DNA of 64,000 nt from Rhizaria sp. SCN 62-66. Lineage: Eukaryota. The position numbers and the translations under genes are program-made. The notes under the pieces are model-generated. The model searched no databases and was not told the DNA's origin. It was given only the letters and a program-made list of their open reading frames with translations. This document shows positions 8,802 through 61,300 of the stretch, piece after piece (positions within the stretch are counted from its first letter, which is position 1; every line of letters begins with the position of its first letter). The stretch covers positions 186,001 to 250,000 of the forward strand of contig MEDY01000009.1 of NCBI GenBank assembly GCA_001724265.1, in the 5' to 3' direction.

Positions 8802-9710
8802 TTACGTGCCGAAGTAGCGGTCGCCGAAGTCGCCGATGCCGGGGATGATGTACTTGTCCGAGTTGAGGTTGCAGTCGATCATGGTGGTGACGACGCGGAT
8901 CTTGGGGTACTTGGTCATGAGCACCTCGACGCCCTCGGGCGCGGCGATGAGGTTGACAAAGCAGATGTCCTCCTCCTTGACGCCGCGCTCGAGCAGGACC
9001 TGGATGGCAAGCACGGCCGAGGAGCCCGAGGCGAGCATAGGATCCAGCAGAAGGATGGCCAGGTCGTTGACCTCAGGCAGCTTCGAGTAGAAGAGCTTGG
9101 CCTGCTTGGCGGGGGACGCCTCGTCGCGCTGGATGAGGATCTTGCCGATCTTGATGCCGCGGATGGTGGAGCGCAGCGCCTGCTCCATGGCCTCGCCGGC
9201 GCGCATGATCGACACGCCGATGACCTCCTTGGAGAGCTCGAGGCCGGAGAAGGCACAGCCGGTGGGCGTGGTGACCGTCTTTTCGTCGTAGGGCAGCTGG
9301 TCGAACGAGAACTCGATCAGCGAGCGCATCAGCTGGTCCGCGTAGAAGACGAAGTCGGAGCGGGACGCGTCCTTGTTGCGAATCAGCGTGTGCACGCGCA
9401 GCTAAACGGGTATCGCAGGATGAAGCAAGAGATTCAAAGGAAAAAGAGCGGTAATGAGAGGACAGAAATGTGAGGTGATGCATGTGATTATGGATCTGTT
9501 TGGTCGTGTCACAGAGACCTCCTTCATGGTATCAAAGCGGTATTTAATTGTAGTATCGTAGTTTCATCGCAACATTGCGCGATTTGTGAGCGGAATAGAG
9601 GGACGTACGTTGGCACTCGTCTCAGGGAGCACGTGCAGGTTGGGGAACTTGGCAACGAGCTTCTCGGTAAGCTCCTTGCGGGCTGCCACAGCCGCCTCGG
9701 TTGTGGACAT
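8802..9710 (-). CDS. UPRT: Uracil phosphoribosyltransferase, 2 exons (9710-9609, 9401-8802)
   Basis: Motifs HTLIRNK, GVSIMRAGEAME, IGKILIQRDE, LLLDPMLASG, YIIPGIGDFGDRYFGT. Phase-0 intron 9608-9402 (GTACGT...TTTAG) joins LPETSAN to LRVHTLIR. Ends TAA. Confidence 0.95.
9402..9608 (-). other. Spliceosomal intron (207 bp) in UPRT
   Basis: GTACGT...TTTAG; removal restores the conserved sequence. Confidence 0.9.
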
Positions 9711-10421: not shown

Positions 10422-13327
10422 ATGCGTGTCGCAGCCCTCCATCCTCCCCCACCGTCCCCACTGACCAAGCGTGATGTCAGCTGTCGTGACAGAGACGAGC
10501 TCCAGCGTGACAATGCGGGCCCGTCGGCTCGCTCTCTGCGTCCTACCCTGACTTCGGCGCTCTACTCCGTCTCAGTGACAGTCCTGCTGCTGTCGCAGCT
10601 CGCCTCCTTCACGGCCGCCGCGTCCTCTCTCTCCGGCAGCAACAACGCGTACGCCTCCTCATCCGCGGACTCCAGCTCGATGTTGGCGCTCATGGGCACC
10701 GCGCCCCGCGACGCCGCGACCTCGGACGCCGGCGAGGAGGTTGCGTACACGTTCTTCGACTACGCCTCGCTGGCAGTCAAGTTCCTCTGGAACGTCTTTT
10801 ACGTCTGCGGCGCCTTCGTGCAATACTATCCTCAGTGGCGCGCCATCCGCCGCGGCGTCGGCACGGCCTTTTCGCCGCTTGTCTGCCTTATCCTGCTCAC
10901 GGCCAATATCACACGCATCTTCTACTACGTGGGCGAGCCGTTCGACCTGGTGCTGCTGTACCAGAGCATCGTCATGGTGCTCGTGCAACTGGTCGTGCTG
11001 CAGGCCGTTTGCGAGGACAAACTGCGCCGCATCACGGCCCGCGTTCACGGCGGCACTGCGCCCGCGCCCGGCGAGAGCGAGGACAACGAGAACGAGCTTG
11101 GAATCACGACCGGCAATGAGACCGAGGCCGAGCAGTCCGAGGCTGAGTATAATTCTAACAATAACAACAGCAGCAGCTCTATTGTTCATAGCACTGATGC
11201 CACGGCAACTCACGCCGCGGACGGCGCTGACCCCACTGCTGATGCTGCCACCGGCGCTGCGACTGGCGGCGTCTCCGGCACCCGCGGCCACACGACCCCG
11301 GGCGCCTCCGCCTCGGCCGCCGCCAAGGTCGCCGTCGCGATTGCGGCCGATGACCACGAGAGCTCCTCGGACGACGGCGGCGGCGGCATCGCGGCCGGCG
11401 GCGCCAGCTACCGCGCCCCGCGCCAGCCCCGGGTCATCGGTTCCGCGGCGGCCGCGGCGGCGGCGCTGGCGGTGTCTGCGCCGCGCCTGAAGCGCAACGC
11501 TAACAACGCCAGCGGTCACGGCGACTACAGCCACGACGACAACGGCCACACGGTCTCTGTCGCTCCGGCGGCGACTGCATCTGCTGCTGCGGCGGCGGGG
11601 GCGGGCGGGCGGAGCAAGGGCGGCTACGCTGAGTACGTGGACGAAGACAACAGCCACGACGACCGCAGCCAAGGCGGCGCCAAGCCGAGCGCGGTGCGTA
11701 GCGACGGCACTTTAAGCAACAACAGCAGCAATAGAAGCCTTGCATCTGCTGGTTCTAGCTCGAGAGTGACGAGCTCCCGCGGCTCGCAGCAGCCGCAGCC
11801 GCCGCAACACGTGATGTTGCACACGCGGTACCCGTCGTCGGCGCCGTCGTTCACGCAGTCGCTCATCGCGTGCTGCTTCCGCACGCGCGCGCACCTGCGC
11901 CGCGGCTTCAACCCCACCGCGGGCGACTCGGCCTCGGACGGGGTCATCTACGTCGACGCCCCCGGCGCGCACAACAACGATCACGCCCACACCAACAACA
12001 ACAACGCGAACAGCGGCATCGACGGCAACGATGACGACAATGACAACAACACGGAGCAGCGCACGCGCACGCGTATGCTGGCCGTGAGCGCCGTGGACGA
12101 CGGCGTGACGGACCCGCACAACCGCGGGCGCTACTACGTTCGGCCGCCGCTGACCATCTTCACCGGCGGCTGGCGCGGCATCACGGTCAACTTCTGGGCC
12201 TGGGAGCTCTACTCGAGCTACCTGCTGTTTTTGGTCTGCTTCACGTTGGTGCTCACTGTCTTCTCCGTCGCGCTGATGCGGTACGTGGCCTACGTGGTTG
12301 TGCTTGGCTACATTGCGCTCATGATCGAGGCCATGCTCGGCGTGCCGCAGGCCTACAAGAACTGCATCATCGGCACTCGCGGCCTGTCCGCCTTCCTCAT
12401 CTGGTCCTGGCTGCTGGGCGACATCGTAAAGACTGCGTTCTTCATCATGCTCGACGCGCCGATGCCATTTCTCGTCTGCGGCTCCTTCCAGGTCGCCGTC
12501 GACATCTTCATCATGCTACAAATCGCACGGGTATGTCTCTTTTTTATGCATCCAGCATTAACTATTTGTATAACTGAACAACCTTTTGACGCCTCTTGTT
12601 TTAATTATGTCTGACTGGGCATCGTTCATGTTTGTTTCATGACTCACGCCCTCTTCGATCTTTTTCTGTATCGATTCATTTTTAGGACCGTTTCCCCGAG
12701 GCCGCTCGCGAGCGTGCCGCGCTGGCTGCAGCGGCCGCAAACCTCAACCGCAACCAGCAGTCGGACGACGCAGAGGGGGGCGACCGCGAGCGGGGCCCGC
12801 TGGGCCCGGACGAGCAGCCCGAGGTGCAGCTGCCGCGCACGCCCACCATCCACAGCAACGGCAGCAGTGGCGGTGCCGCGGTGGTGGGTGGCGGGATTGC
12901 GCCCCGGTCGCTGTCGCGGCACAGCAGCAACAGCGGCGTCCGGCCTCTCCCCGCTACCACGCCCGCCCACGCGGCCGCGGCTGCGGCGGGTGCGACGACG
13001 CCGTCCAAGTCGGGGCGCAGCCTCAGCCTTAGAGCGCACGGCCACATCAGCGACGAGCCTGCAGCCAAGCCTGCCAAGACCAACAGCAGCGGCAGCGGCA
13101 GCGGCAGCGGTGTCGCCGTGGAGGCGATCGACATGGACTCCGGGGACGTCGAGGAGGGTTTCGCCGCTCTGGCAACCGTGGCCGCCGTCGCCAATACGAG
13201 TTAGGCGCGGGGCACGGCCGCCGACGCTGCTGTGCACGCTGCGCACTCCACGGAGGCGATTGTCGATGCCACAGCGTCTTTGCATGATGTGGGCATTGTG
13301 AGTGGTGAAAACATCGGTGAGGTTTGA
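10422..13327 (+). CDS. PQLC1: PQ-loop membrane protein, SLC66A2/PQLC1-like; exons 10422-12530 and 12686-13327 (13204 if TAG is read as stop)
   Basis: Two PQ repeats: YYPQW...FSPLVCLILLTANITRIF...LLYQS and EAMLGVPQAYKN...WLLGDIVKTAFF...PMPFLVCGSFQVAVD. Intron 12531-12685 (GTATGT...TTTAG). In-frame TAG 13202-13204 is followed by 40 more sense codons to TGA 13325-13327. Start codon inferred. Confidence 0.85.
12531..12685 (+). other. Spliceosomal intron (155 bp) in the PQ-loop gene
   Basis: GTATGT...TTTTTTAG, AT-rich, frame preserved. Confidence 0.85.
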
Positions 13328-17545: not shown

Positions 17546-20500
17546 TTACTTGCTGGGGTCGTATTGGTGCTCAAGCTTGACCGGCTCGGCGCCCGACGGC
17601 CTGCGCAGTCGCTCGGCCTGCCCGGTCAGCGGCGCGCGATGCACGCCGTCGCGCATCAGCGCCACCACGGGGTGCGCGTGGCCCTCGCGCCCCGACTGGT
17701 CCGCGCACAGCCGGCCCTGCAGCTTGCGGCCGCGCTCGTCCCAGCCGTCGCTGTTGGTCATGATGTCAGCGCCGTAGTCGATCGGGGTCGTCACGCCCGC
17801 CGCAGGCAGCACGTGCGACAGCAGCTGCAGCATCGAGCCGCTGTGCCCGATCGGCCGCGCCTGGCGCATCACGGGCGACGCGCTGGGCAGCAGCCCGCGG
17901 CCCGCGGGCAGGCGCGGTCTGTCGGCCGCGCTCGCGTTCGCAGCGACCGCGCCGGGCACGGGAGGCGCGCCCGTGGTGACCGAGTCCGTCCGCGCCTGTC
18001 CCATCGTCAGCGGGTCGTTGGCGCGGTAGGTGCGGATCACGCGCGTGATGCCGGAGCGTCTCGACCGCGCCGGCGACTGCGCCGTCACACCGGAGGACTC
18101 GCCGTCGGCGGCGGCGGAGTCGGCGTCGCTAGTATACGAGATGACCTCGGGGCGCTGCGACATGCGGCCGATGTGGAAGGGCTCCTCCGCGATCGGCGGC
18201 GGCGGGATGATGTTCGAGCTCATCACGCGCAACGGCGCCGCAAGCGCCGCAGACAGCGCCGCCGCCACGACCGCGGGGTCGTCCGAGAGCCGGTGGCCGT
18301 ACGCGGGCACGATAGAGACGCTGGAGTCGTCCGACTGGTGGTATTGCCGCTGCTGCTGAGGGGACAGAGGCGGCGTGCCGTAGGCGTCGCCCGAAGCCGT
18401 GCTGTGCTGTGGCAGCGCGGGGACGCGCGCGGTGCGCATGGCCTCCGCGCTCTCGACGCCGAACGGGGGCGCGGCGGCGGAGCTATTGTGGTGTTGCGTC
18501 AAGTGCGACGGCACGTACTGCGCGCCGTGGCCGCTGGTGTGGCCGTGGCTGTCGGCGGACCGGCGCGCGGGCGCCATGTGCGCGTTCATCGGATGCAATC
18601 CCGAGGCCAGCGCAGCGTCCTCGGCCCAGTCGCCCGCGGCGGCGTCCGCGCGGCGCAGCGGGTGCCCGCGCGTGGTGCCAAACGTGTTGACGCGGCCGCG
18701 GTGCGCGTGCGCGGCGGCCGCGGCGGCTGTGGCGACGTAGGCCGAGCCGACGAGGTAGTCCTGCCCGTCGTAGGGGTTGGTGTGGACCGCGCCCTCGGTG
18801 TGCGCGCCGTACACCTGGCTCGTGCGGAACGGCTGAAACGCGTCGAACTCGTGGTCGTGCCCGGCCGGAGACTGGTCGCGAGGGATGCCGGACCGGCGCT
18901 GCTTCTGCTGCTGCTCATGCTGATGATCACGTTCATAGTGATCATTGTGAGCGTCATAGCGACCCTGATCGCCATATTCGTAGCCGTGATCGTTGTGGTG
19001 GTGATAGCGCTCAGCATCGGCGCTGTAGCCGTGGCCTCTCTCGTGGTGGTCGGCGTAGTCGTCGGGGGGGCCGCCGCTGTGCGCGTTGTTGTACGCGGAC
19101 TGATCGTACTGCTGATGATCATAGTGCGGATCCTCCTCGTACCCGTTGTTGTCGCCGCCGCTATGACCGTAGTCGCCGCCGTCGTGGCTGTGCGCATCGG
19201 CAGCAGCGGAGTCGCAGGCGCCGTTGTCGTCGGCGTCCTTTTGGTCAGCGTCACCGACAGCGGGAGCAGATGCAACGGTGGTGGCAAACGCAATGCTTTC
19301 AGACAGGCCATCCTGCTGTTGCTGCTGTTGCTGCTGTTGCGGCTGGCGAGTCTGACTGCCGCGCGCCGGCGTCAGCACGCGCGCGTGCTGCTGTGGCTGT
19401 CCCGGCTGCCTCTGGCCGGCGCCGGCCGCAGCAGACGCAGCGGCGGCCGCGGCAAGCGCCTGCTTGCGCGCGTCGCGCTCCGCCCGCGCCTCGCGCCGCC
19501 GCTGCTCGGCGACCACCATGGGGTGCTCCTTGACCGGCCCGGCGTGCGCATGCGCGTTGCGCATTGTCGTGGAGAAGCGTTGCTCCGCGGTCGTGGCCGC
19601 AGCGTCGCTCGGCCACTCGACGGGGCTCTGCGAATCGAAGTAAAGTCGCCTGTGCTGGTCGCACACCTGCTTCTGTTTGCGCTGGTTCGCAGTCGCCGTC
19701 AGGGCCGCTAAGTCGCCACCGGTCGCCTCCGCCTCTGCAGCCCGCTGCGCTGCCAGGGACAGCGCGCCCTCGTGGTCCATCGCGGCCTTGACCTGGACCG
19801 ACGAGGCGCGCAGTACGTCGACGCCTAGGCCCAGCACGCCCTCGCCCGCGGCCGCGGCCGCGGCGGCCACGGCCTCGGCGGCAGCGGCGCGCTCGCGCTT
19901 GGTCTTGGCCGCCGCGAAGGCCGTCGCGCCGTGGATCTTGGGCGAGTAGAACACCGGCTGGTCGCGCCCGGCGTAGTCGAGCCGCGGCGCGATGGCCGGC
20001 AGCGGCCGCCGCTGGTCGAAGCCCACCGCAGCGCGAACGCGCGGGTCCATGTTCGACGCGGGTGGTGCGTGGGGCGACGCCGCGGCGGCCGCGGCGGCGG
20101 CGCGGTGCGCGAAGAGCGTGGGCGGGCCCTTAGACAGTAGGTCCTCGACGCGACGGCGCTGCAGGGCCTCCGCGCGGTCGCCGCGGTAGGTCCGCGAGTC
20201 AATGATCAGCGGCGAGCCCAGCGGCGTCATCGCGCGCGCCGACACCGGCACCGAGCTCACGCCCGTGGTGCCAGTCGCGCCGGCGCGGGCGGACGGGTCG
20301 CGGCGGCGGCGCTGCGAGGGCATCGTCGCCGTCAGCGCGTTGTCTGTCGCGTACTGCGCTTGCCCGTCGCCGTTGTGACAGCTGAGATTGGCGTTGGTGG
20401 GCGTGCGCGGCGTGGCGTGGCGCGAGCGCTGGCGCGGGCGCGGCGTGAGCATGCCGGTGCCCGACTCGTGCAGCACCGTGTTGATGAGCGAGTAGCGGTT

Positions 20501-23500
20501 CCCCACGGCCTTGCGGTAGGCCGCCTTGCTCAGCGCGTCGCCCTGCATCGCGTCGCTGCGCGGGCCGAATGCCGCCACCGCAGTCGTCGCGGACGCGGGC
20601 GCCGCGCTGGCGTCGGCGTCGTCGAGCTGAGACGCGCCGGTGCAGTCCTCGGTGCTGAAATTGCTGTTGGCAGACGCAGCCGTGGTGTTGAGCCGCGCGC
20701 CGTCCACGGTGGCGGCGTAGCTGCCAGCGCGGTGCGCGGCGAGCGGCGTCTGCCCGGTCGCGGTGCGGTAGAAAGACAGACTTGCCGCGGCCGTGGCGGC
20801 GACGGCGGCGGGCACGTCGGGCATCGGGATGCTGTCGTTCAGGTGCGAGAACAGCCGGTGCGCGGCCCCCGCCCCCGCGGAGGCCGGCGTGGCCGGGTGC
20901 GAGGGCGCGTGGCGGGAGTGCGGCGTGCGCGGCGCGGCCGCCGAGGCGGGGTCCGCGCCGGGGCCGGAGGCGTGGTAGCGCATGTCCGCGTCCTTGTCCT
21001 CGTGCTCGGATGAGTTGCTGCCATACGACTGCTGCTGCTGATACTGCTGCTGCTGCTGTTGGTAGTAGTCGTAGTACTGCTGCTCCTGGTCGTCGTCGTT
21101 GCCGTCGCCATATTGCTGCTGCTGATACTGCTGCTGTTGTTGCTGTTGCTGCTGCTGATACTGCTGGTATTGCTGGTATTGTTCTTCGTCGTCATCATCG
21201 GGATACTGGCCTTGCTCGTTGTCGTAGTACGGCGTGCGCTGCAGCTGCTGTTGCTGCTGCTGGTGCCGCTGTTCATAGTCGCCCTCGCCGTCGCCGTCGC
21301 CGTCGGTGGTGTACTGCTGGCCTTGCTCGTCGACCTCACCGAACGGCCGCTGCGGCGCCTGCTGAGGGCCGCGGCGCCGGCCGGCGGCGCTGCCGTGGGG
21401 GCTGAAATATGGGTGCTTACGATGGTTGAAGTAGCCGTCCTCGTCGTCGAAGTCTTGGCGACTCTGATCTGGGTCCTGCTCCTGGCCGTCTGCGTGCTGT
21501 TGCTGCGCGTAATCGCCCTCGTAACCGCAGTCGTAGTCGTCGCCCTCGTCGCCGGCGTCGGCAAAGTCGTAGCCGTTGGCGGCATCGTTGGCGTCGTCGA
21601 CATTCACCACGTCATCGCCTTGACGACCGAGGCCGCCGTCGTCGATGTCATTGTACTCCTCGGTGACGCTCGTAGCAGCCGCTGCAGCCACCGCGGCCGC
21701 GAGCGCGGTAGGCGCGCCCTCCGCCCGCGCCCGCAGCGGCCCGCGCTGCTTGCAGTTGCTCTCCAGCGCAGTGCCATCGCCCGCCGTGGCAGCCGCGGCC
21801 TCAGCCCCAGCCCCAGCCTCAGCCTCGGCCTCAGCCCCGGTCCCGGGCACAGGCACGGCGTGGGAGCTGCTCGACGGGCTCTGGCTCTGGCTCGCGCTGG
21901 CGCTCACGCTGGCGCTCGCGCTAATGTCGGCCAGCGGGCTCGGCTGCGGGCTCACCGTCACCGCGTCAGCCTCCAGCTCGCTCACGGTCGGCGGCTTGAC
22001 TGTCCTCTCCTTGGCGGGCTTGACTTCGATGCCGAGCTCCTCGGGCAGGATGTCGAGCTCGGCGGCAAGCCGGATCAGGTACGACTCGCCGTCAAGGGAG
22101 TCGTCGCTCTCGTCCGCGTCTTTGGCTGCGCTCGCAGTAGAAGAGGGGCTCGCGCTCGTTTGTTGCTGTTGTTTCTGCTCGCCAGGCTCTTGTTGCTGTT
22201 GCTGCTGCTGCTGTTGCTGCTGCTGTTGCTGTTGCTGCTGCTGCTTCTCAAGCTCGGCGAGCTGCTCGGCCTTGCGTTCTCGTTCCTGCTCCTGCCGCTG
22301 CTGCTCGAGCTCCCGCTATTGCAGCTGCCGCTCGCGCTCCTGCTGGTGCTGCTGCGCCGCGCGCTTGGCAGCAACAAGGACGCTCACCTCGGCCTCGATG
22401 CGGCTGCGCTCCAGCGCCACCTCCTCGGCCGTCATGTTCAGGTCGGCGAACGCCCCACTCACGTCGCCGGTAAAGCTGGCGTTGCGGGCGTCGTTCGCGC
22501 CCGAGCCGGCGTTGAGGCTGGCGTTGAGGCTGGCGTTGATGCTGGCGGCGAGCGCGGCGGCGGGCACGGCGGCGGCGGTGCGCGGGGACTGCGCCGGCGA
22601 GGGCGCGAAGAACTCGGGTGACGGCGACGGCGACGGCTGCTTGAACTGCTCCTGTCGCATCTGCTGCTGTTGCTGTTGTTGCGGCGGCTGCTGACGATAA
22701 TCGCCACTGGTGGCGCCGCTGTGGCTCCCGGTGCGGGTCTGTGAGGCTGCGCGCGAGAGCGCGGGCGAGGCCGCGGGTGACGGGGTCGGAGGCGCGGAGG
22801 GCACCGTGAAGGGCAGCGAGGCGGCGGGAATGGCGTGGCTGCGGGCCTGGGAGGTGGCCTGAACAACGCTCGGCACAGGCTGCTGCCGCTGCTGCTGTTG
22901 CTGCTGCTGTTGCTGCTGCTGCAGTTGAGAGAGGGCCTTGGGGGAGCTGACGGCAGGACTTGCCCCCGTGTGGTGCTGATTGTTGTACCGAGGCTGAGGC
23001 TGAGGCTGAGGCTGCTGCTGTTGCTGCTGCTGTTGATGCAGCTGCTGCTGCTGCAGACGGGGATGCTGCATCAGGGCGGGCTGGGTGCGGACGCGGTCAT
23101 ACGCGGCGACTGTGGCCGGTGACGGCATCACGGCAGGAGGCGCGCGCTGGCCAGCCTGCTGCTGCTGTTGTTGCTGCTGGTGGTGACCAGGCTGATACTG
23201 CGGACGCTGACCATACTGGTAATCACCGTAGTCTTGGTCATGCCCGTTCTCATAGCCCTGCTGATACGGCGACTGCTGTTGTTGCTGCTGCTTCTGGTAA
23301 TGATGTTGTTGGCTGTGGTGGTGCTGCTGCGGCGTGTATGGCGTCGCGGGGCCCTGGGTCTGACTGTAGCCGTGGCCGGGAGCGTGGCGTTGAGGCTGCT
23401 GCTGCTGCTGCTGGAAGTATTGCTGCTGTTGAGGCTGGTGGCTGGCAGGGCTGTCGGAGTAGTAGCCTCCGTAGCCGTCATAGCCGTGGTCGTTGTCATT

Positions 23501-24043
23501 TGAGGCGGTTGCAGCTGCATAGTGATGTGGCTGATGCGGATACTGTGGTTGAGGGCCGTTATAACCATGGCTATTGTTGTTGTTGACTCTGTAGCTCTGT
23601 TCATGAGCAGGCGGCAACATCGGCCCATGCTGCTGCTGTAGGTAGTGCTCCTGTTGCTGACGCTGCTGTTGCTGCTGTTGGTAGAGTTGCTGTTGCTGCC
23701 ACTGCTGCTGGTGCTGGTCGCGCGGCGCGTGCACGGGCGCGTACCCGGCCGCGTAGTGCGGTGCGTGCTGCGCCAGTTGCCCGTGTACATGCTGCGAGCG
23801 CACAAACGCGTCGGGCGGCTGCGTGTACGCCGTCTGCACCGTCGCCGCGGGCAGCTGCGCGGCGACGCGGCGCTGCGCGGCCGGCGACGGCGCCGAGAGC
23901 AGCGCATCCAGGTGCGCGTCCAGTGGGTCGTGCTGGAACACCGCAGCCGAGCCCGGGGGCTGCGCGGGGAAGGGGCTGGGACCGGGGCCGGGTCGTGGGG
24001 CCGACTGTGGCGGCGTCTGGCGGGGGCGAGAAGCGCGGGACAT
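17546..24043 (-). CDS. Large Gln/Ala-rich low-complexity protein (about 2165 aa), function unknown, with one in-frame TAG
   Basis: ORF-track ORFs 22316-24241 and 17546-21985 share a frame and are separated only by TAG 22316-22318 inside a Q/E/R coiled coil. The 110 intervening codons have no other stop. ATG 24043 lies at the GC boundary. Ends TAA. Confidence 0.75.
22160..22245 (-). repeat. Poly-Gln (CAG/CAA) tract, one of many in 21030-23710
   Basis: (CTG/TTG)n on the + strand. Confidence 0.85.
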
Positions 24044-25975
24044 GGGCGCAGAACAAGCTCGGGCTGGGGCCTGAAAGTGGCTAGCTCGTGTTTCGTCAGT
24101 TAAAGCTTTGGTTTTAAGGAGAGTTTCGCGTGTGAGAGTTTTCTGTAGGCGTGTGCAGTGGAATGGGAGGTGAGCAAAAGGCCGGTGGGTTTCCCTTGGT
24201 GAGTGAGCTAGAAAACTAGATGTATCAAGATTCAGTGTCAACTTTACAACACTTCATCAAAATATTTAAAATATATCAATATCAGGTCATCTTAAATTTC
24301 AATTAAATGGTATGCCGACGAACATTAGAAGCAAATAAACCGATGAAACCGACTCGGGCGAAGCGACCACACAGCAACCGACACACCACCACTGTCGCGG
24401 AGAGGGACCGAAAAAACCTACTGAACTTCGAGTTCAATCCTAAATGTGTGACTTAATCATCTCAGCATCATGGAACAATTTGACCATTGTTTTAGTGCTG
24501 AATTGAAGTCATTTTTTCTAAATATAATGTTTGCCAATTGTGATATTCCGGTAATCACAGGCTGAACCGAACTAGCTTCACGAGTTTCCAAGATTTTCCC
24601 CAACACTTAAGCTTATTAAATATCGACCCCGCAACACTTTGCAATATAAAAAATATACACAATACAAATACAATTAATGAGAAAACGTAGCGGATATCAA
24701 GAATTCTCTGTTATTTCGCACACTATTCAAAACTAAGCACAGTTCTAGTGAGTGTTGGGATGGGACTAGGAGGCAAAAATGCACATTGGACGCAGTGCAG
24801 CAACTTCGCGACTGCTGTGGCATAGAACTCACAGGAACTCCGCTGCGGAGTCAATAATATAACGCACATAAATTACAGATGCAGGTAGTGTGATAATAAA
24901 CGCGACATAACATGCTGTTCGAGTCTGAGCTCTGTATCGTGCTTCAGAGGATTGTCCGCAACTGTCTAGAACTGGAGCAATGTAACCAACAACACGTTCA
25001 TAAACGCATCAAGTAGCTTGCCATCATTTTTTTGCCAGTGCGCACGCTCTTGTTCATTACATACATCGCCTGACCGTTCAGCTCACCAACGTGGCATGAT
25101 GCGCCACAACTTGTGGACGCCGAACACAAGCCATGGTTGGAAACAACCCTCGCTGGATTGGGCGTGAGATAAGTTTTAAGTTTAACACAACATTAACAAA
25201 ATGACTTTGAACAATGTCAGAAACTTGAAGTTACCAGGGTCAGTATTATTGCTGATACTCATGTTTACTATTGCTGATGCTCATGTTTACTGGGTGTATT
25301 TCATCACGCAGCCTTGCGTTACTCAATCGTTAGATTCGCATTACCTTTTAACACAGGTAGAAATGTACCTGACATCATTACAACAATTTTACTTGCAGAA
25401 AGGCACCGGGTGGGCGGATCTATATTTGGAGGTTTTGGTATCATTCGGATGTTGTGACAGTGGTGATGTGGTGCGTACACAATCGCATCGGTGATTTGAC
25501 CATGTATCCTGATACGGTGAAGACAACCCACGAAGAAGCGCAGTGCCAATAAGATAACAACTGTCCCGACAAATATCCGCGACACAAGTGAATACGCGTG
25601 TGTTGGTCGACGCGTGATTGCAGGCCTAGTTAGGCCTGCAACCACTACAAAAATGGAGACGCATACGATGAACTTGCGAGTATTACGGCCCCGCAAAAAT
25701 ATAATATACTAAACTAACTAAATTATACGACACCGCGGATATCTACTTCATGAGGTTCTATGGATTGGCATATTCACACTTTCTTCTGAAATCTGTCGCC
25801 TGAATACAAGTGCCAACTAGTTCTGAGCGTGTTTAAAAGCTACTTACGTCGAGACGATGAATCCGTTGTTACTGCTATATGACTATTGCTAAGTTGTACG
25901 ATCTTATATCCTATTTGGGTTTCTTTTTATATTTTCGCATCCGTTTCTTACAGCTCGCTAGCTCGTGCAACAGCA

Positions 25976-46948: not shown

Positions 46949-47051
46949 TTACAGCCTCAACAGCGATGAGTGCAGCCGCTTGATGGCGGCCACCATGTGT
47001 GCCTGCTTATTATTGCAGAGATGCGTTGTCTTTGCCGTATCTTGTGCAGCC

Positions 47052-47122
<71 letters not shown>

Positions 47123-49192
47123 TTGTTGTTGCTGGCTGCCGCTCTGGGACGTGCCACCTGTCGTTGTCACCACCACAGACGTTGTCGCTTCCGTGAGGCC
47201 GAGCTCCTCCAGGACCGTGAGCAGCAGCCTCACGTCGCTCTTGGCCTGCGCCAGCGCTGCCCGGCCCACGGTCACCGGCTCCACGGCCGGCACCGTCACC
47301 GTGTACCGCGAGTCGCCAGGCAGCGCAGCCGCTGACAGCGAAGCCACCGGCAGTGCAGTCGCTTGCTGACTGGAGACTGTGGCTGAGGGCTGCGTTCGCG
47401 CGGGCGCTGTCTTAGCCGCAGTTGCTGTGAATCCCGGCTGCGGCGTCTCTGCAGCGCTCTGTGTCTGCGCCCACGGCTTTGCGGCAGTGACGGTCGCGTC
47501 AGGCGCGGCGCTTGGCGCGGCGCTCGCAGACCCGCTAGACTTGGGCTGGATGAGGGGAAGGAACGCCTCGGCGATCTTCTCTGCCGCCGCAGTCTTAGCC
47601 GCGTCGCTGGTGCTTGGGACACTCATACGCGAGTCTAGTGACCGCAACTTGCCAAGGACGGTCTTTTTGCCGGGGATGCGGCAGTTGGGGTAGGGCTTCG
47701 GCGGCGGAAGCGACTTCTTCGCCTTACCGCTGCAGTTGAGCGCATCGAGCCTAGTGGCTGCAGCGACTGCGGCTGCCGTTGGGGTTGCAGTAGCGGGAGA
47801 AGCGGACGCGGTCGCTGACTTCGTGGTGCCCTCAGACGTCGCACCTGCAGACTCCTTTACAGGCGCGGTCGAGGTGGACGCGGAGGCGCTCACGGTTACA
47901 CTGCGCACGATGGGAACACAAGGGCTCGCACTCTGGATCTGAATGGTCTGTGTCCCGTTGACGCCATCCCACTTGTAGCAGACAGTGTTCTCGACAGTCT
48001 TGGAACGGTACAGCTGGAGGTTGCAGCTGCTGAAGTCCACGTTCGCAAACAGCGACGCCGCTGCAGCAACGGACTTCACTCCCGTTCCCGTGGTGGACGT
48101 CAGCGGTGTCGCACCTGCAGCGACACCGGACGACCCATTTGCGCTGTGCACAGTGCTTGCTGAAGGAGCAAAGGCTGAAACTAACGGCGTGCTCACTGTA
48201 GGCTTGCTTACTGTTACTGCAGGCTTGTCGACTGTAACTGCGCTTGCTGGCACTGCAGACTTCCCTGCAACCATCGCAGTCATGCCCACAGTTATATCGA
48301 GAGGGATCACTACCTGAGCAGCTGGAGGAGGAGTCGCGGCAGGCGTTGCCTTTGTCACAACAGGCGTGCTGCTGATGCTGCCGCTTGTGCCGCTACTGTA
48401 ATTGCTCGCAACATCGGCCTGACTGGCAGATCCGTTGCGTGTTGAAGTCGCGGCCACACCGGCCGCGCTGACGGGGGCTGCCGCTGCGAGCCGGTGCTCT
48501 GCAGGCACGCAGCTAGCTAGCTTGAACGTTGTGCTATACTTGCGTTTTGCACTGCCTGTTTGCGTTGAGGAGGCTATTAGGCCCGCGACTGAGTCGGTGT
48601 TGCTTCCAGGTGTTCTCGCAACATGGTCACCTGTGATCTAGGGACAGTCCTCGTTGGCCAATGCTGTTGCCGCATGACTAGCGAGCGGGGATGCCTCTTT
48701 CAGGATGTTGCAAGCTGTGCCGATATCTACTATAGGCAGCGTACGCTGGACGGCGTTCACCGCGGCCACTGCTGGCGTCGAGGCCCTCGTCGCGAACGCA
48801 ACCTCGACGGGAGCGACTTCCTTGGTCACAACGCTCTCTAAGCTGGCAAGCCGAGTAGACCCGGTCGTGGGGAGAATCAAGAGAGGTAGGCTTAGCGGAA
48901 CAACAGTGGTTGATGCGATACAAGAGTCAGTCTTGAAGATGTTGAAGTTGCTAACCTTAGTCCGATCGATGATTGCGAAGTCGAGGTCGGACCAGTCACT
49001 GCCGGACTCGGGCAGATCGCACTCGTATTTGGCGACCGCATTGCTACACTTGCGGGCAGCCGCCGGCGAAGTAAGATCGCTGTTGTTGGAGGGAGTGAGC
49101 AGCTCGAAGTCGCAGAGCGTATCACTGGAGGCTGTGCCGGTCGGCGAAGGAGGGGACGTCCCCACTTGAAGCGTCGTCGAAGGCAACGACAT
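46949..49192 (-). CDS. Ser/Thr/Ala-rich hypothetical protein (about 747 aa) with one in-frame TAG
   Basis: ORFs 48638-49225 and 46949-48508 are in one frame, separated only by TAG 48638-48640 plus 43 sense codons. ATG 49192 lies at the edge of AT-rich sequence. Ends TAA. Confidence 0.65.
47052..47133 (-). repeat. Coding microsatellite (CAA/CAG)n(AAC)n: poly-Gln and poly-Asn
   Basis: (TTG)n(CTG)n on the + strand. Confidence 0.9.
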
Positions 49193-49534
49193 ACACGCTA
49201 TAAATAACGTGTTTAAGTAAACCAAATAAAGAGTAATATTAAGTAAATAACATTTGTTTCATATTCATTCTTATAAATGTGATCTCACGTTCAACAAAAG
49301 AAATATCATTCCGTTTCGACACACCACTGTGATGCATGCTGAAGATCGGTGCCCACAGTCACCTCCTTCAGCAACAAATTGCACCGCAGAGAATACAATT
49401 TACAAGGTGTGTATTTTAAGCAATATATAACGGTTTATAGAATAGTAATTATACATGTGATCTAAGCCACACATACCAACACAGCATCACGTATAAGTGA
49501 GCTATTCAAGGTAAGAGCGGTTGCTTCGCTCAGC

Positions 49535-52634: not shown

Positions 52635-55139
52635 ATGAACGAGCTTCAGCTGCAGTACAAACTCTGCTCGCCTTACGTTGTCCGCTGTCTCGGTGTCATG
52701 GACACAAATGCTCTCACGGGCAAAAGCAGTGTTTCGACAGTGCTTAATGACAGTGGTGTTGGACAAAGTGACGAAAGCAACTTTTCGCTTGTGATGGACT
52801 ACATGGATGGTGGGTCACTGAACAAGCTTCTCACTCACCCTGACTACCGCACAGTGTCAAGCGAGGCGCGTGTCTGGTTAGTGCAACAGGTAGCAAACGC
52901 TGTGCATGCGCTAAGCAAGGAGAACATTGTTCACGGCGACATCAAGTCCTTCAACTTTCTTTGGGATGTTGTGGACAACAATACGCACCCAGTCGTCAAG
53001 ATCACAGACTTTGGTAACGCGAAGCTGCATGCGACGATGCAGAACATGTCTCTCTCCTCCTTCCCGCGTACGGCTCACTAACAAAAGAACACGCCCTAGT
53101 GACTGAGCATCTCCCACCAATATGTCAACTTGAGGAAGCTTAACACGTATCCCCTTGAATCATACTTCTATTCAATATTTTAATTTGCACTCGTAGATGT
53201 GCCAGACTCTGTCTCGGGCACGCTGGCATGGATGGCACCGGAGTTGCTGAGTGGACAGTCCCGTCATAACGCAAAATCGGACGTATATGCACTTGGCATG
53301 ACCTTGTACGAAATCGCCTTTGGCGTAAGGCCGTTTGAGCACTTCAGTTGCAGTGAGATCTCAGCCATGATCATCAACGGTCTGCGCCCCACCATCGATC
53401 TGAACGACTACAACGAAGAGGCGCAACCGAAGTTTTACCCTGGTACGGCACCGCCATCATCGCTGATAACACTCATCAGCGAGTGCTGGGACGCAGACCG
53501 AGACAAACGTCCCAATATTGAGGACGTCGTAAGCCGGCTACAGGCCATCCGTTGCGATGAGCGCGCTGCACGTGGCATGATGCTTAAGGTGCTTCGTCGC
53601 GATCTGAATCAGCAGTCACAACACGAACATTCACAGTCATCAACAGTATCCTCGTCTATTTCCTTTACCAGCGTTATCACAACGGACACACCCATCAATA
53701 GGCCGGCAGCGCCGCTGCAGCTTTACCAGCACAAGGACGTGAAGACTGGACCGGTACACTCGGTACAGACTGTTCCCGAACAATCGGCAGCACCCGCGCC
53801 GCCCCAGCAAAAGGTGTGGAGCCCTTTACCTGCTGGCTGTAAGCTGGACCGACGCCACATGTCGCAGCCGGTCTCTACGCATCGTGCGGATAAAGCAGAT
53901 AACCAAAAAGTGCCTGAGCGATACAGCATGGTCATGTCCCAGCCTATTGCGACGGTCAAGCCAATGCTAGCAGAGCGCGATGCGTTGGACCTGCCGCAGC
54001 GGACACCGCCCCCGTCGGACGAGGCGGATGAGCTGTTCCAAGTCGGACTCGCAATGCTGGAGACGTTACCACATGGTTCGAGCCCTCAAAGCGCGTTCGA
54101 GACCATCAGCGATGCTGCCAAGCTCGGTCATCCTGGCGCTATCTGCAAAATGGCATAGTACTACCTGCAGCCCGAATTCGGCCGCTACAGCGTTTATAAC
54201 GCTAGGAAGTGGATGAAGAGCTTGACTCTGCTTAGTGGAGAGGGCTGTTACCAGTATGGAGTATGGCTTATAGCGCGTGATATCGACTTTGATGAGGCTG
54301 AACTGTACTTACGTTGCGCAAGTTTTGCAGGGTATCGGAAAGCGGATGACACGCTTGCGGCACTGTTTACACTTCGTGTTACGCGTAGTATAATGGCGAA
54401 GCTTGGAAGTGAGCAGAACAAAGATCTAGCTAAGCGGTTGCGGCGCGGACTGATGCGCCGATGTCCGGTCGCATACTACATGTTAGCCCGTGCAGAGTTC
54501 GATGGTCTTATTGACATTAAACAAAATCGGAGCTCAGGTTTTGAGATTCTACTGGGCGCTGGAGAACCATTGGATGGCGATGAGTTTTACGGGCCTGCGG
54601 CAGCGTTCTACGCCCACTTCAAGAACTCAATGCCACATTGGAAGGCTGCTGCAGAAGCAGGAGATAAGCATTCACAATTCATGCTCGGCAACCTTCTCAT
54701 CGAAAATGGCGATTACGCAACCGGACTGCTGTGGCTCCGTGAAGCGGCCACGCGTGAGTACGATGCTGCGTTGGTTCGGCTGGCAGAGATTAGCTGCGAA
54801 GGCCTCTATGGGCAACCCCAAAGCAAGGGCGTCTCCATTCTCTACGTAAAACGCGCGTACGCAACTGGTGGTCCTGATGGAGAAGCGGAATTTGCAATGT
54901 ACTCCGTGCTCGGTACAGGTGTGAAGAAAGATCAACAGTACGGCGCGCGCAAGCTACATGAGATTGCCTCAGACTCAAAAAATAGCAGGGCAATGTACAA
55001 CTTGGCTGTGTGCCATTTAAATGGATGGGGTGTCAGGCGCGATGTTAGTGCCGCCAAGTTTTGGTTGACTCGGATTCGAGACTATCCGAAGGCGTCACGT
55101 CTTTTATGCGACCTATGTTGCTCTAAAACTACCACATGA
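52635..55139 (+). CDS. TKL-type protein kinase fused to Sel1-like repeats; intron 53068-53196; in-frame TAG 54156-54158; 5' end unresolved
   Basis: LVMDYMDGGSL, HGDIKSFN, KITDFG, GTLAWMAPE, KSDVYALGM, CW...KRP. Phase-1 intron GTACGG...CGTAG restores the frame. Sel1-like repeats AAKLGHPGA, AAEAGDKHSQFMLG, AMYNLAVCHLNGWGVRRD. Ends TGA. Confidence 0.8.
53068..53196 (+). other. Spliceosomal intron (129 bp) in the kinase gene
   Basis: GTACGG...CGTAG, phase 1, joins the DFG exon to the APE exon. Confidence 0.88.
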
Positions 55140-55344
55140 GGCGAGAATTAGTTCGGGGAAGACTTGATGGTTATGCAAGATTGTTGAGTTGAGGTATGGA
55201 CAAGGAACTGTATTGAGTGTACATACGAAATATACGAAGAAACACTCCTACACTTAAGATAAATCACATGTATATAAGCAAGGTATACGTATAGCAGAGA
55301 AAATAAACTCAATTTTAAACGACCAGATCATGGCATAATTCGGA

Positions 55345-58300
55345 TCACTGCTGTTGCACGCCGCGATGCACCGCCTGCGGCCGCATCAACGGCCTCTACA
55401 TGGCCCCGGCGCGGTTCTGGTCAGCGCCCTCCCACACCACGGGCGGGCCCCCCGGCGCCGTGTCGCGCGGAAATGGCGTGAAGAGGTAGCCCAGCAGCTC
55501 AGTCAGCACCGCGGGGTCCGCCAGCGGGTTGCCGTCGAAGGCGGCGCGTAGCGGGGAGTGTGCGCCGAGCCGCGGATGAAGCCCGTGTGCGAGCGCGGCC
55601 ATGGCCAGCTCGGCGTCGCGCAGCTCGTTGGTCTTGAGCGTCACGTCGATCACGGTCAGTGGGACCGTCGTCGCGTCCTTGGTGACGTACTGCCTCGGTT
55701 GCTGCGACTGGTGCGGATGCTGCTGCTCTAGGCTCGGAAACGACAGAGGCGCGGGAACGCGGACGGAGGTAATCCACGCGTTGCGGAGCAGTGGTGGGAG
55801 ATCGACCGACGCGCGCGCGGACTGCGGGTCGAACGGCGTCAAGGGCACCGACGCATGCACAAAATCAAACTCGAGGAGGCTCGTGTTGCGCATGACCGCA
55901 CGCGTGAGGGCCAGAATGCCGGCCTCGCGCAGGTGCGAGCGCGTGAGGTCAATGCGCCGGAGCCGCGTGCGCTCGATGGCGGGGGCGAGGATGTGGACGA
56001 CGGAGCGCTCGGAGAGGTGCGTGCGCGAGACAGAGAGACTCGTCAAGAAATCGCTTAAAACGAGCGAGGCGAGCGCCTGCATACCGGCGGAGTCGAGGCG
56101 AGAGGCATCTAAAGAGAGCGTGCGGAGGTTGGTGGCGCAAACAAGAGACTCTGCGACGAAGTTGAACGAAGTGCCGGTCAAGCCGCACTTGGAAAGGTTC
56201 AGCCGTGCCAGCGGGATCGTGGGACGCCGGGAATATGCGAGGTGGAGCGCCGCACCAAGAGCGGGACCGAGCTTGGGATTCATGGATAAGTCGAGCGACA
56301 GCAGGGACGAGGTATGCAAAAGCAAACTTGTCAGCGCAAGACTCGCCTGAAAATCGACGAATCACAAAAATTAAGCGAGGATGTGGAAAAGATAAGAAAA
56401 TTGAGTTAGGACAACGTGTCAAAATACAGTTCAGGATTATAGTAGAACATTTAAAATAGCGTATAATAAAACCTTGTCAAGTTTCATACCTCTTCGGTGA
56501 TCCCGTTATCCGCTAAATGCAGAACCTTGATCGAGTCACCCATCTCCACTGCCCTCATTATAACGGCAGCGCTGAGCCCTTCAAGTTCATTCTCGTTAAG
56601 GTTAAGCTCCGTGAGTCCGCGGTTCCGGGCAAGCCCGGGCGCGAGCCCTCGTGCCGCGCGCGCAGTGATGTTCATCTGACCCATGTCGAGCCTGCGCAGC
56701 GCCGCGTTGACCGTGAGCGCGTCACCTAGCACGCGACCCGCGTCAGCGGTCATGGCGTTGCGGCACATGACGAGCTCCTGCAGCGCGTTGTTGCAGCCTA
56801 AAGAGCGCATCAGAGCGAGCATGCCGCGGGAGAGGATCTTGCACGAGATGATGTTGAGGTGCTGCAGCGATGATGAGGCCGACGGGTCAGAAAGGAAACC
56901 GGCCAGCGCGACGGCGCCAGCGTCGCCCAGGGGGTTCGAGCTCAGATTCAGCGACCGAAGCGCGGCGAGCGCCGCGGGCGCGGAGGGCGTGATGGCAACA
57001 AGCGGGGACAGTAGCCACGCAGGCGGAGTCGAGAGCTCGTACGGGTATTGATACTTGGACTTGTTCTGTGTCTTACCATTCGCACCGCTGCCAAGTCCGT
57101 TCTCATGAGCATCAATCGCGTTGCCATAAGCAACTGCATGGCCGCCCGCATTATGACCATGGCCCAGGTCAGCAGTGTCGTCGCCCTCACTGGCGTCGAG
57201 AGAAAAGTAGTCGTCTTGTTTCTTGACCCGGGCGTTCGCCGCCGCTGCAGCCGCAGCCAGTCCCCCTGCGCCACCCGCGCCCGCGGCCGTCGCCGCACCA
57301 GCAGCAGCAGCGGCGGCCTCAGCAGCCTCGCGGCGCTCGCGGCGCTGGTTGGCGAGCACCTGCGCCCACGTCTCGCGGCACCGCAGCCTGAGGCGCGCGG
57401 TCGCGGACACTGCGTCCGCGGCGGCCGAGGTCGACAGCGGTAGCCGCTCGGCCGAGAGGAACATGGGGGGGTGAGGCGCGAGCGCGGAGCAAAGCGCATC
57501 GTTCGCGCTCGTGTTGATCACCAGAGGGCTCGCGGCGCCGTGCGCGCCGTGCGCAGGCGCCGAGCACAGCGAACCGGTGCAGTCGGTGGGCGCGTGCGCG
57601 TGCGACGCCGTGCCTGCGGCGGCGGCGGTCGCGGCGGCGGAGGCCGCGGGGTGCGCCGGTCTGTAGCGGTGCGTGCGCGTGAGACTGGCCGGCGCGGGCG
57701 TGAGCGGAAACAGAAATGACTGGGAGAGGCCGTGCAGATAGTCGGCAAGCAAGGGCTCGGCAGCGGCAGCAATGGCAGAGTCATCGCGGCTTCCGTCAAC
57801 GCTGAACACGGAGTTGGGAGCTTTGCTGCCATCAAAGTCGAAGCCCTCATCGTCAATGTCAGAGTTATTATCGCCGTCGTCGTCGTCGCCGCAGTCGCTG
57901 TTACAGCAGCTGCAGAAGCCTTCCTGGTCACAGTCGTCATCGCCGCAGTCAGTCTCGTCGGCGTCCGCGCTCTCGGCCTCCCCGTGGTCGCCGCGGCCGC
58001 AGAGCGCGGAGGACGTCGCTTCGTCGGCGCCGAGCTCGTCCCAGTGCCACGCCAGCTCCTCGTCGTCCTCCTCGCGCTCGCACTCCCACCTCGGCAGCCA
58101 CAGCGGCGCGCCCCCGCTGTCATGCTTGCCCGTTACAACAGCCGTGCTCGCGGGAACCGTCGAGATCGCCCGCATGCGCGCGGTAAGGGACAGCGGCTGC
58201 GCGTCGAACCAACCCGCGTTGGCGCCCATGCGCAGCGGCGGCAGCACGAGCCCGTCCGCGGTGTCCGCGTCGGCGACGTCGTTGTGCGTGTCACCCACAG

Positions 58301-61300
58301 CGGAGTCGCGGCAGTAGCGGATGTGATTCGCGTGCGCCTGTTCGTGAATCAGGGTCGTAGTTCCTGAACCGCTGCTAGCGCTACCGCTTACTGTCGTGGA
58401 AACGCCGGAGCCCGTGCCGAGGATCGCGTCACTAACGCGCTTGCCTAGCCGGCAGCCGCACGGGCACGAGCACTCGACGGGCGTCGCACAGCTCGCGGCG
58501 CTGGCGCCGCTTGCCGAGGGCGCCGCCGCGGCGCCGCCCGTAGCGCGGTGGCAGGGCAGCGCGAGTGGGCACTGGCAGAGCCCCGTGCCCCAGCCCAGCG
58601 CGCCCGCCGTGACAGGCGGCAGGAGCATCTCCTCTTGCGGGTCCCCGTTGGGCGACACCGACGCCACCAGCCGCAGCGCGCGTGCGAGGACAGTCGCCGC
58701 GGCCGCGGTCGCCGCGTCGGCCGCCGCGCTGGCCGCAACCGCCTCGACAGCAGCGGCGGTCGCGGCAGCGGAACGCTCCGCAAGCGCGGCCGACGTCGCC
58801 GGCGTCGAGGCCGCGGCGGCAGCGTCCGCAAGCAGCGAGGGGAAGCGCTCCACGGCGTTGGCGACCTGCGCAGGCAGGTACGCGAGCGGCGCGGCGGGAT
58901 CCAGCGGCCCATAGTAGGCCACAGCGGGCGTGGCGTCCGCGACCAAAGTCGGCGCGGGCACCAGCGCCGGTGGCAGCACCAGCGGGCCCGCCTCGGCCCC
59001 AGTCGCGGCGCCCAGCGCGGCGGCGGCGGCGGCGGCGGCAGCAGCAGGGCTGCCGGCGGCGTCGGCGGCGTTGTCGGGCGCAGACAATGCGGTCAGTCCG
59101 AGCACGGCCGCGGCGGCCGCGGCGCCAGCCTCGGCGGAGCGGAGCGCGGCGACGCGCGCCAGCAGCGCGGGCCACGTCGAGGCCGACGTGTGGTAGACCG
59201 TCGACGCGTTGTTGCGCGGCACGGTGACCGCGGATGACGTCCACCACAGCGCGCCGGCGCCCGCGTCGGCCCCGGCCGCCACCGCGGCAATGGTGCTCTC
59301 CGCTGCAGTGGGCGGGGTCACGGGGCCGGACGGATAGTTGGTGCGCACAGGCGGGGCCAGCGCGGCCGCCACCGTGCTGTGGTTGGTCATCGCGGCCGCG
59401 AACGCGGCATCGTCGTCCGCGGACGCCGCGTCCTTGCTCCTGCCGCGCGAGCCGGCGGTCGCACCGGCGGAGCCGCGGGACGTGCCCTGGCCCGCGGGCT
59501 TGGTGGCGGCGTCGCTGAGCGATCCGGGCAGCGAGGGCAGCGCGGCCGCGACGAGCCCCTCTACGCGCGCGGGCAGCGGCAGCGACGAGGCGTGCTTGAC
59601 CAGCGCCTCGAGCACCGAGTCCACGTTGGCCTCGAACAGCACCAGCGGCGATGCAGCCATCGACGACAGCGCAGAGGGCGGCGCGCGCGTGCGCGCGGGG
59701 TTGCTGTGCGGCGCGGTAAGTGTGTGCGCGAGCGACGTCAGCGAGCTGTCGGACGGCAACGGCGCGGAGGCGAAGGCGGCCGCGGCGGCGACGGCGGCGG
59801 CGTACACGGCCACGCCCCACTGCCGCTCGATGCTCGGCGCGTCCGTCGGCGGCAGCCCCAGCGCGGCGGCCGCGGCGGCCGTGGACGCGACGGCCGCGGC
59901 CAGCGCGTTGGCGGCGGCGGCCTTGGCAGTCGATAGCGCAAGCGCCACGGCCTGCGAGCTGAAGCCGACCGAGGGCACGTAGCCGCCGGGGCGCACGTTC
60001 AAGGCCTCGACCACGGCGCGCGCCACCATCGATGCGCCGCGGGGCACGACCAGCGCGGCGCCGTGGCCGCCACCACTGCCCACGGTCACGAAGGCGTCCG
60101 ACGGCAGCACGGGGATGTGGCTGTGGCGCGCAGTCACGGACTCGCTCTGAATTGGAAAGGAAAAGTAGCAAGAAAAGATTAGAGAATTTAGCATAGTGAG
60201 AGTTTTAGAAATAGTGGCGTCATGACATAAAAACAAACTATTCAACGAAATAGTGATAAAAACGAGAGTTGGATCTCATAAGAACGTACCCCGTAGCCGG
60301 AGCGGTCGAACTGGCGGGCCGCCACGGGGTCAGCGCGCGCGGGCACGAGCGGCTCGCTCTGCACAGCCGGCAGCCGCTCCGCGCGCACCACAAGCGCGGT
60401 GGTGGCGAGCAGCGGCGCGAAGTACTCCGAGTGCGCGCTCTTCTTCTCGGCCGTCGCCGCGGCCTTGGTGCTGGCCGTGACGGGGTGCGGAAACGGGTAG
60501 TAGCACGGCACGAACGCCGGCAGCGGCAGCGGCAGCGGCAGCGCCACGGGCGCCGGGTACGCCGACAGCGGGAACGACGTCAACGGCCACAGCCGCGGCT
60601 GCAGCGCGCCCAGCGGCCGCGCATTGAAGAATGTCAGCGCAAGGGTGCTGGTCGGCACCAGCGGCAGCGGCACGGCGGCCACAGCGCGGGAGCTGGCAGC
60701 CGCGACGGCGCGCAGCGAAGCCAGCAGGCCCACGACCGGGCTGCGCTCGGCGGCCGTCAGCGCAAAACCCGAGGCGTTACGCGCGGTCGTGACAGCTGCT
60801 GATGTGGCCGGCGCAGAGGCTGCACCAGCAGCCGCAACTGCGGCAACGCAGTCTGCGCAGTCGAGCGAGACCGGCAGCGCACCGCCGCCGTTGGAGTGGT
60901 GCGAGAGAGCGGCAAATTGCAGAGTGCGCTCGGCGTCGGCGTGCGCGGCGGCCAGGACGAGCCACGCCGCGCGGTCGCGCGTGACGCTCATCGGCGGCAC
61001 GGCGGGAAAGTGCGCGCGCGGCAGGCCTGCGGCGCCGCTGAAACCAGCGCACACGGGGAATACGGGCTGCGCCTGAGAGAGGCGCAGCGCGGCGTGCGCG
61101 ACGCACGTGCCGCCGCTTGCAGTCGCGGTCATAGTCGCAGTTGCGTTCTGGTTGCGGGGACTGTTAGCGTTGGCGAGCGCAGCGGCGAGCGCCGGGTTGG
61201 TCGGCAGCGTGCGCGCCCAGTCGTGGTCAACGGCGCCGGCGTGCGCGGACGCGGCGGCTGCCAGCGCCGGGGCCAGCGAGGCCACTGCAGGGCCCGCACT

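Follow-up and report, generated by a model that had tools for sequence, protein, structure and literature searches.

Does the triplet TAG at positions 22316-22318, read on the minus strand, end a gene, or is it translated? The locus lies in a stretch of 64,000 nucleotides (nt) of contig MEDY01000009.1 (positions 186,001 to 250,000), deposited as Rhizaria sp. SCN 62-66 and referred to here as the window. The window derives from metagenome data and belongs to the nuclear genome of a eukaryote that is uncultured, GC-rich and intron-bearing and that occurs in metagenomes of wastewater and bioreactors. An initial annotation of the sequence had proposed that this TAG, which stands inside a long open frame, is read as glutamine. 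We consider it probable that this organism uses TAG as a sense codon and TAA and TGA as its stops, in which case the TAG at 22316 would be an ordinary but rare sense codon inside one gene of 2,165 codons, called here the main gene. That the triplet is translated is supported by a coding signal that continues through it, by the lack of any ATG over the 445 codons behind it and by purifying selection downstream. It is supported further by a second TAG, located in a domain that homologues cross, and by the absence of TAG from 11 clear gene ends.

The main gene across its TAG

On the minus strand the region reads ...GAG CGG CAG CTG CAA TAG CGG GAG CTC GAG CAG CAG..., that is, ERQLQ*RELEQQRQEQERERK (ERQLQ*RELEQQ), as the initial annotation had quoted it. 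The frame is open from 24253 to 17546 (2,235 codons) and this TAG is the only stop within it. Upstream of the triplet are 645 codons, the preceding in-frame stop being a TGA just above 24253. Downstream are 1,589 stop-free codons, as far as the TAA at 17548..17546, a count that agrees with the "about 1590 further codons" given earlier. The likely start of the main gene is the ATG at 24043, which yields a coding sequence at 17546..24043 (minus strand), where the TAG (22318..22316) is codon 576 and neither a frameshift nor any other stop occurs in the 2,165 codons. From base composition alone (71% GC), the chance of a stop-free run of 1,589 codons is about 10^-12.5, and that of a run of 445 codons about 10^-3.5.

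The composition of the gene does not shift at the triplet, as had also been claimed for its GC content and codon style. By codon position, GC is 0.74/0.48/0.75 upstream of the TAG and 0.74/0.53/0.87 downstream, and GC at third positions (GC3), taken over 60 codons at a time, always stays between 0.63 and 0.98 from codon 60 onward to the gene end, unbroken at the TAG. Long plus-strand frames run over the main gene as well; in these, GC is highest at codon position 1, which is the mark of an antisense frame here. The context of the TAG has no internal repeat in the window.

Standard gene callers divide this region into two genes, and the gene calls in the databases are split at the TAG on four contigs, where the downstream part is filed separately (P0281 on three of them, P0002 on one) from the upstream open reading frame (ORF). 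Such a division is what a stop at 22316 produces, and it is also what would be found if a first gene ended at the TAG and a second one started further downstream in the same frame. We regard two genes as highly improbable. The next ATG after the TAG lies 445 codons downstream, so no ordinary restart could yield the downstream protein, and GC3 is 0.70-0.92 throughout this ATG-free stretch. An AT-rich spacer, present at all real gene boundaries of the window, is missing at the TAG, and the frame shared by both parts would have to be a coincidence.

Comparison with contigs of other strains gave 21 differences in the main gene, 16 of which are at position 3 and synonymous (binomial, 7e-5). Downstream of the TAG, 16 of the 19 differences are synonymous third-position changes (binomial, 7e-6), with the caveat that three adjacent ones at 21405-21407 may be a single event. 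In addition, a polyA-RNA contig of run X5 (22319-22673) carries a 12-nt deletion at 22508 relative to the window, which is in frame and fits a coding region. The part after the TAG is protein-coding and under purifying selection, and this selection counts against a dead gene.

The same data bear on the possibility that a nonsense allele or a pseudogene lesion, or else an error of sequencing or assembly, accounts for the TAG of this contig. The C-to-T change from CAG to TAG is the likeliest nonsense change given the 228 CAG codons of the gene, and a low-complexity orphan protein might tolerate truncation. Nevertheless, we judge a lesion or an error very unlikely, in view of the strong excess of synonymous differences downstream, the otherwise intact reading frame and the recurrence of the split gene calls on four contigs. 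An identical TAG is present in a DNA contig of another run (X2), which spans 22256-22871 with no differences from the window, and the letters at 22316-22318 have no alternative in any run. The reads at 22318, to which the initial annotation had pointed, are represented here by assembled contigs, and at that level the TAG is confirmed by the X2 contig. Moreover, the 64 kb contain another gene with a TAG, placed in a conserved domain and seen on four to five contigs, and two to four independent lesions, all of them TAG, in about 16 genes would be exceptional.

The triplet is flanked on both sides by polyA-RNA contigs of X5. Parts of the main gene have no RNA contig and none of those listed crosses the TAG, which counts neither way, and the figures for RNA depth were set aside, being mixed with CAG repeats of other organisms. 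The predicted protein is rich in Q, A, S, D and Y and of low complexity, and has no Pfam family. No relatives of the C-terminal part of the gene were found among the metagenome contigs, and a protein search with residues 800-1589 of the main protein retrieved only itself.

Splicing at the TAG

To describe the introns of this organism, five reference introns were delimited by eye from conserved protein sequence and frame continuity. The intron of the uracil phosphoribosyltransferase (UPRT) gene (9402..9608, minus strand; 207 nt, GTACGT...GTTTAG, GC 0.44) ends in a TAG that is a splice acceptor and not a codon. That of the PQ-loop gene (12531..12685, plus strand) has 155 nt, GTATGT...TTTTAG and a GC of 0.36, and that of the gene for a protein kinase with Sel1 repeats (kinase-Sel1; 53068-53196, plus strand) was likewise read by eye. 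The remaining two, both of 143 nt and on the minus strand, are an intron that joins two frames of an LRR gene (56347..56489; GTATGA...TTTTCAG, GC 0.31) and one at 60147..60289 (GTACGT...ATTCAG, GC 0.33). Taken together, the five have lengths of 129-207 nt, GC of 0.31-0.44, the 5' site GTA[CT]G and a pyrimidine share of 0.64-0.84 in the last 25 nt.

The initial annotation had seen no intron-like sequence at 22316. This was too strong, since two in-frame GT...AG stretches end at the TAG (22316..22462, minus strand), one of 72 nt from 22387 (GAG/GTGAGC) and the other of 147 nt from 22462 (GAC/GTGAGT), but neither resembles the real introns and both were rejected. A short GC-rich intron of either length, divisible by three and with proper ends, could take the TAG out of the mRNA, and real introns here often end in TAG (those of UPRT and of the kinase gene, and the intron ending at 52628). 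Yet both candidates have a GC of 0.68-0.69 and a GTGAG donor, and pyrimidines make up 0.36 of their last 25 nt, so that they differ from the five verified introns in GC, 5' site and pyrimidines. Both candidate 5' sites are retained unspliced in the X5 polyA-RNA contig at 22319-22673, although an RNA library can contain DNA. Codon periodicity also runs on through the candidate stretch. As for the other TAGs described below, no in-frame GTA[CT]G donor lies upstream of them, and that of the kinase gene falls within a conserved block. There is, in our judgement, hardly any prospect that splicing removes the triplet.

Further in-frame TAGs and gene ends

The second in-frame TAG (54156..54158, plus strand) is located in a conserved helical block of the kinase-Sel1 gene, the last two exons of which (52629-53067 and 53197-55139, plus strand) match the Pfam families Pkinase and Sel1 and end in TGA. 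It is preceded by 324 open codons and followed by 326. Homologues were collected by a full HMMER search with the translation of this gene (P0001, TAG read as Q); they needed such a search, as a word-based one with the tail of the protein gave only eight distant Sel1 proteins. Around the TAG the block reads AAxLGHPxAxRxxA-x-xxxxPExGxY....AxKxMKxL, and the five aligned homologues that cover the TAG column (P0133, P0135, P0142, P0240 and P0239) all cross it unbroken, with the residues Q (in P0142), R, R, M and M. P0142 is the closest of them, being 45% identical in the alignment and identical at 14 of the 16 positions just upstream of the TAG. In P0135 (601 aa), the kinase part from the C-lobe on and the Sel1 part up to the C-terminus form a single protein. 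The gene calls made for the organism itself cut the gene precisely at the TAG: P0132 ends in ...CKMA (four contigs) and P0131 begins at the next Met (five contigs). The contigs that carry the organism's proteins reach 319,831 nt in length.

An AlphaFold model of the region (mean pLDDT 67) places the TAG residue in the helix 46-56 (pLDDT of about 70), which sits between the helices 31-42 and 64-79. The position was at one stage described as being inside a Sel1 repeat; as Pfam made no Sel1 call there, this was downgraded to a conserved helical block adjoining the Sel1 repeats. Another homologue, P0138, is 328 aa long and 35% identical, and the largest of the six contigs that carry it measures 126,856 nt. 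Its last residues, ...MGHQDAIR, fall inside the same block, with the break four residues short of the TAG column. This end could be due to an in-frame stop or to an intron in a relative or paralogue, and the position of the break hints that relatives may share the TAG trait.

At the other end of the kinase-Sel1 gene, no open frame was found for the N-terminal half of the kinase domain (52100-52628, plus strand). The sequence upstream of the exon at 52629 is AT-rich, with several GTAAG...CAG candidates, and the gene probably has small 5' exons there. Its GC3 is 0.52-0.61, compared with 0.8-0.9 elsewhere, and some genes of the window, in the regions 51000-56000 and 43400-46900, are much poorer in GC than their neighbours.

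Two further TAGs continue in frame into GC-rich sequence. The third candidate (48638..48640, minus strand) belongs to an S/T/A-rich gene (about 49198..46949) that ends in TAA, and has 206 open codons before it and 562 after it. The fourth (55396-55398, minus strand) is near the end of the LRR gene, whose TGA is at 55345-55347; after it the sequence stays GC-rich for 16 more codons, to the TGA, and then turns AT-rich. This TAG is either a sense codon or the one TAG terminator of the window. Two introns of 143 nt, each with a GTA[CT]G donor, connect the three LRR frames (64000..60242, 60275..56484 and 56361..55345, minus strand), which are probably parts of a single gene, over 2,700 codons long, that continues beyond the window.

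Over the 16,780 codons of 16 gene pieces, four TAG, no TAA and no TGA stand in frame, along with 542 CAG and 142 CAA codons. Gene ends were assessed on a sample of 19 sites, from which the TAGs at 22318, 48640 and 54156 and the ambiguous one at 55398 were set aside and four ORF ends located in AT-rich introns were dropped (those of the PQ-loop and Pex2 genes and two in the LRR gene). The 11 clear ends that remained are seven TAA, four TGA and no TAG. TAA closes the 1,676-codon gene, UPRT, Aarsd1, the main gene, the 1,292-codon and 4,486-codon genes and the S/T/A-rich gene, while TGA closes the ankyrin gene, the 435-codon gene, kinase-Sel1 and the LRR gene, the last of these counting as TGA only if the TAG at 55396 is read through. 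If TAG normally closed 15-30% of genes, its absence from 11 ends would have a P of 0.02-0.17, in a sample that is small. TAA accounts for seven of the 11 ends although coding GC is 60-80%. In a 20.6-kb locus of a relative (L003, UPRT 72% identical), inspection by eye gave TAA for each of the six clear gene ends; the sample is too small to judge the code of that organism.

The rarity of the codon could be taken to mean that TAG is still a stop, dual or leaky, that is read through at some sites or at low efficiency, with the downstream part only partly made. Context-dependent termination is known from Condylostoma and Blastocrithidia, and programmed readthrough is an alternative route to the same result. 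In-frame TAG is indeed very rare at four in 16,780 codons, and the TAG at 55396, just 16 codons ahead of the TGA at the gene end, could be a true terminator. On the other hand, purifying selection on the 1,589 codons downstream of 22316 is not what a minor product of readthrough would lead one to expect. The base that follows TAG varies over the four sites (C, T, A and A), giving no common readthrough context, and TAG is absent from the 11 clear gene ends. A dual or leaky TAG is for these reasons unlikely, if somewhat less so than the other alternatives considered here.

Two other approaches to these stops were abandoned. A codon-usage log-odds scan of all stops, which scored the site of the main TAG badly, was dropped for not separating sense from antisense in GC-rich, low-complexity DNA. 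A segmentation by GC3 phase, intended to define genes without reference to stops, was dropped for not covering the low-complexity region around 22316.

The organism, known codes and the reading of TAG

Across the 64 kb, GC in 2-kb windows ranges from 44 to 79%, and the sequence consists of open frames of up to 4,492 codons with AT-rich spacers and short AT-rich introns. Pfam identified eukaryote-type genes for ankyrin, PQ-loop, Pex2/Pex12, an Aarsd1-like editing protein, the protein kinase with Sel1 repeats and LRR proteins, and the UPRT gene is likewise present. Base composition is uneven along the contig, for example in the regions 51000-56000 and 43400-46900. The gene of 4,486 codons named above (29874-43334, minus strand) is uninterrupted and has no Pfam family. 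Within its ORF, ARAGORN called a 101-nt tRNA-Pro(cgg) at 31744-31844, probably a false call judging by its length and position, and an Rfam scan of the window gave no matches. The stretch 20000-24400 recurs in bioreactor, wastewater and activated-sludge runs from eight studies, one of which is a polyA metatranscriptome.

The lineage of the organism was approached through the conserved UPRT gene (8802-9608, minus strand), which has a single intron of 207 nt. Copies in other metagenomes are 99-100% and 86% identical, and the best named matches are in Amoebozoa, with 55-59% identity. In a maximum-likelihood tree of 44 rows, the UPRT of the window falls within a clade of 17 unnamed environmental sequences (support 100/100) on a long stem. 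Outside this clade are 27 rows, and the 26 of them that are named (Amoebozoa, Fungi, one trypanosome and two labelled bacteria) all stand apart from it. The UPRT tree leaves the lineage unplaced, and an amoebozoan identity was dropped accordingly, despite the best named matches.

Nuclear codes in which UAG is sense and UAA a stop were unknown until 2017 and are documented in only a few lineages (PMC5304391; PMC11687900). The fornicate Iotanema spirale reads UAG as Gln and keeps UAA and UGA as stops (Panek et al. 2017; PMC5304391). As in the window, UAG alone is changed there, UAA is the main terminator (here seven of 11 ends, with no TAG) and Gln is proposed. Iotanema differs in being an anaerobic metamonad that uses UAG widely, whereas here the genome is GC-rich, TAG makes up four of 16,780 codons and Gln is only plausible; no result obtained here suggests a relationship between the two organisms. 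The same text describes the rhizarian exLh (Sainouroidea), in which UAG is Leu and the stops are UAA (56) and UGA (15) (PMC5304391). This is again a UAG-only reassignment, with a ratio of UAA to UGA similar to the 7:4 seen here, and sainouroids are, by a title in the reference list of that paper, associated with faeces, while the present organism occurs in wastewater. In exLh, however, the codon is frequent, with 384 in-frame UAG in 71 genes (PMC5304391). Furthermore, Leu is absent from the sole alignable TAG column in the window, and the lineage of the window is unplaced.

In phyllopharyngean ciliates, UAG is Leu or Gln and UAA is the preferred stop (McGowan et al. 2024; PMC11687900). These are also independent UAG-only reassignments recovered from metagenome-derived genomes in which UAA stays a stop; of the three metagenome genomes with UAG=Leu, two yielded genes for the suppressor tRNA. 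Amoebophrya sp. ex Karlodinium veneficum, for its part, is reported to use all three stop codons as sense (PMC6394959). It resembles the present case as a non-ciliate eukaryote that reads in-frame stops as amino acids and differs from it in that three stops are affected there, and here TAG alone (no TAA and no TGA in frame). The shape of the code proposed for the window is that of NCBI table 15, the Iotanema and exLh type, with TAG alone affected and TAA as the chief terminator. Our literature search, supplementary files excepted, found no report of a reassigned UAG for Amoebozoa or for any eukaryote from wastewater.

Ciliate genomes are generally AT-rich, in contrast to the window. If TAG is a sense codon in this organism, UAG would be read by a tRNA with the anticodon CUA or by a near-cognate tRNA, eRF1 would have lost efficient recognition of UAG, and the residue inserted would perhaps be glutamine. 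Among the UAG changes in the literature Gln is the residue that arises most often, and CAG-to-TAG transitions lead to it as their neutral product; as these transitions fit a CAG-rich genome and the closest homologue has Q at the kinase column, Gln is plausible. It depends on one column and one sequence (P0142), too little for a decision. Nor does the Q/E/R context at 22316 discriminate Q from E, K, L or R. Of the claim that TAG encodes glutamine, the translation of the triplet has thus gained support, while the residue is not settled by the Q, R, R, M and M of the only alignable column. The comparison with a related species that had been suggested for the main gene found no relative in the databases searched.

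Several observations weigh against TAG being a sense codon. The main protein has no relatives in the searches made, so no residue can be read at its own TAG, and the X2 run that repeats the triplet is possibly the source of the window itself. None of the RNA contigs listed bridges 22316-22318, where the initial annotation had asked for RNA continuity, and the X5 contig at 22319-22673 terminates at 22319, the base before the TAG; this end could be due to chance, to low depth or to a branch of the assembly graph at 22318. In the kinase-Sel1 gene, Pfam called no Sel1 repeat on the segment with the TAG at 54156, and the BLASTP alignments over that segment are weak (E of 0.005-0.17). With four sites in 64 kb, TAG is far below the frequency of a neutral synonymous codon, and the zero counts of TAA and TGA are partly circular, as the frames were delimited by these two triplets. 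The clear genes in the 20.6 kb of L003 contain no in-frame TAG. No tRNA(CUA) was found in the window, where ARAGORN called only the tRNA-Pro(cgg) and Rfam nothing, and the window ORFs scanned with Pfam gave no match to the eRF1 family. Finally, where a gene is rich in CAG, no nonsense mutation is commoner than CAG-to-TAG.

On balance we retain the reading of TAG as a sense codon as the probable one. More tentatively, and with a little less than even confidence, we suggest that an unnamed eukaryotic lineage in wastewater may be in an early stage of reassigning UAG alone from stop to sense. Such a stage might be what is seen in a GC-rich genome where UAG is gone from the gene ends and yet makes up about 0.02% of sense codons, an interpretation that we hold with the same reserve.

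For annotation, the consequence is that standard gene callers divide the genes of this organism at every TAG. Both genes discussed here are already in the databases as separate halves, the kinase-Sel1 gene as P0132 and P0131, and the downstream part of the main gene as P0281 and P0002. Through such splitting, metagenome catalogues would annotate this organism and its relatives in a systematically wrong way. For the evolution of the code, one more case, from a eukaryote that is GC-rich and unplaced, would, if the reading is true, add a new and independent origin of a rare type of code in which UAG and UAA differ in meaning. The extreme rarity of TAG could then show an early, low-usage stage of reassignment, and the organism would offer a natural snapshot of codon capture in progress.

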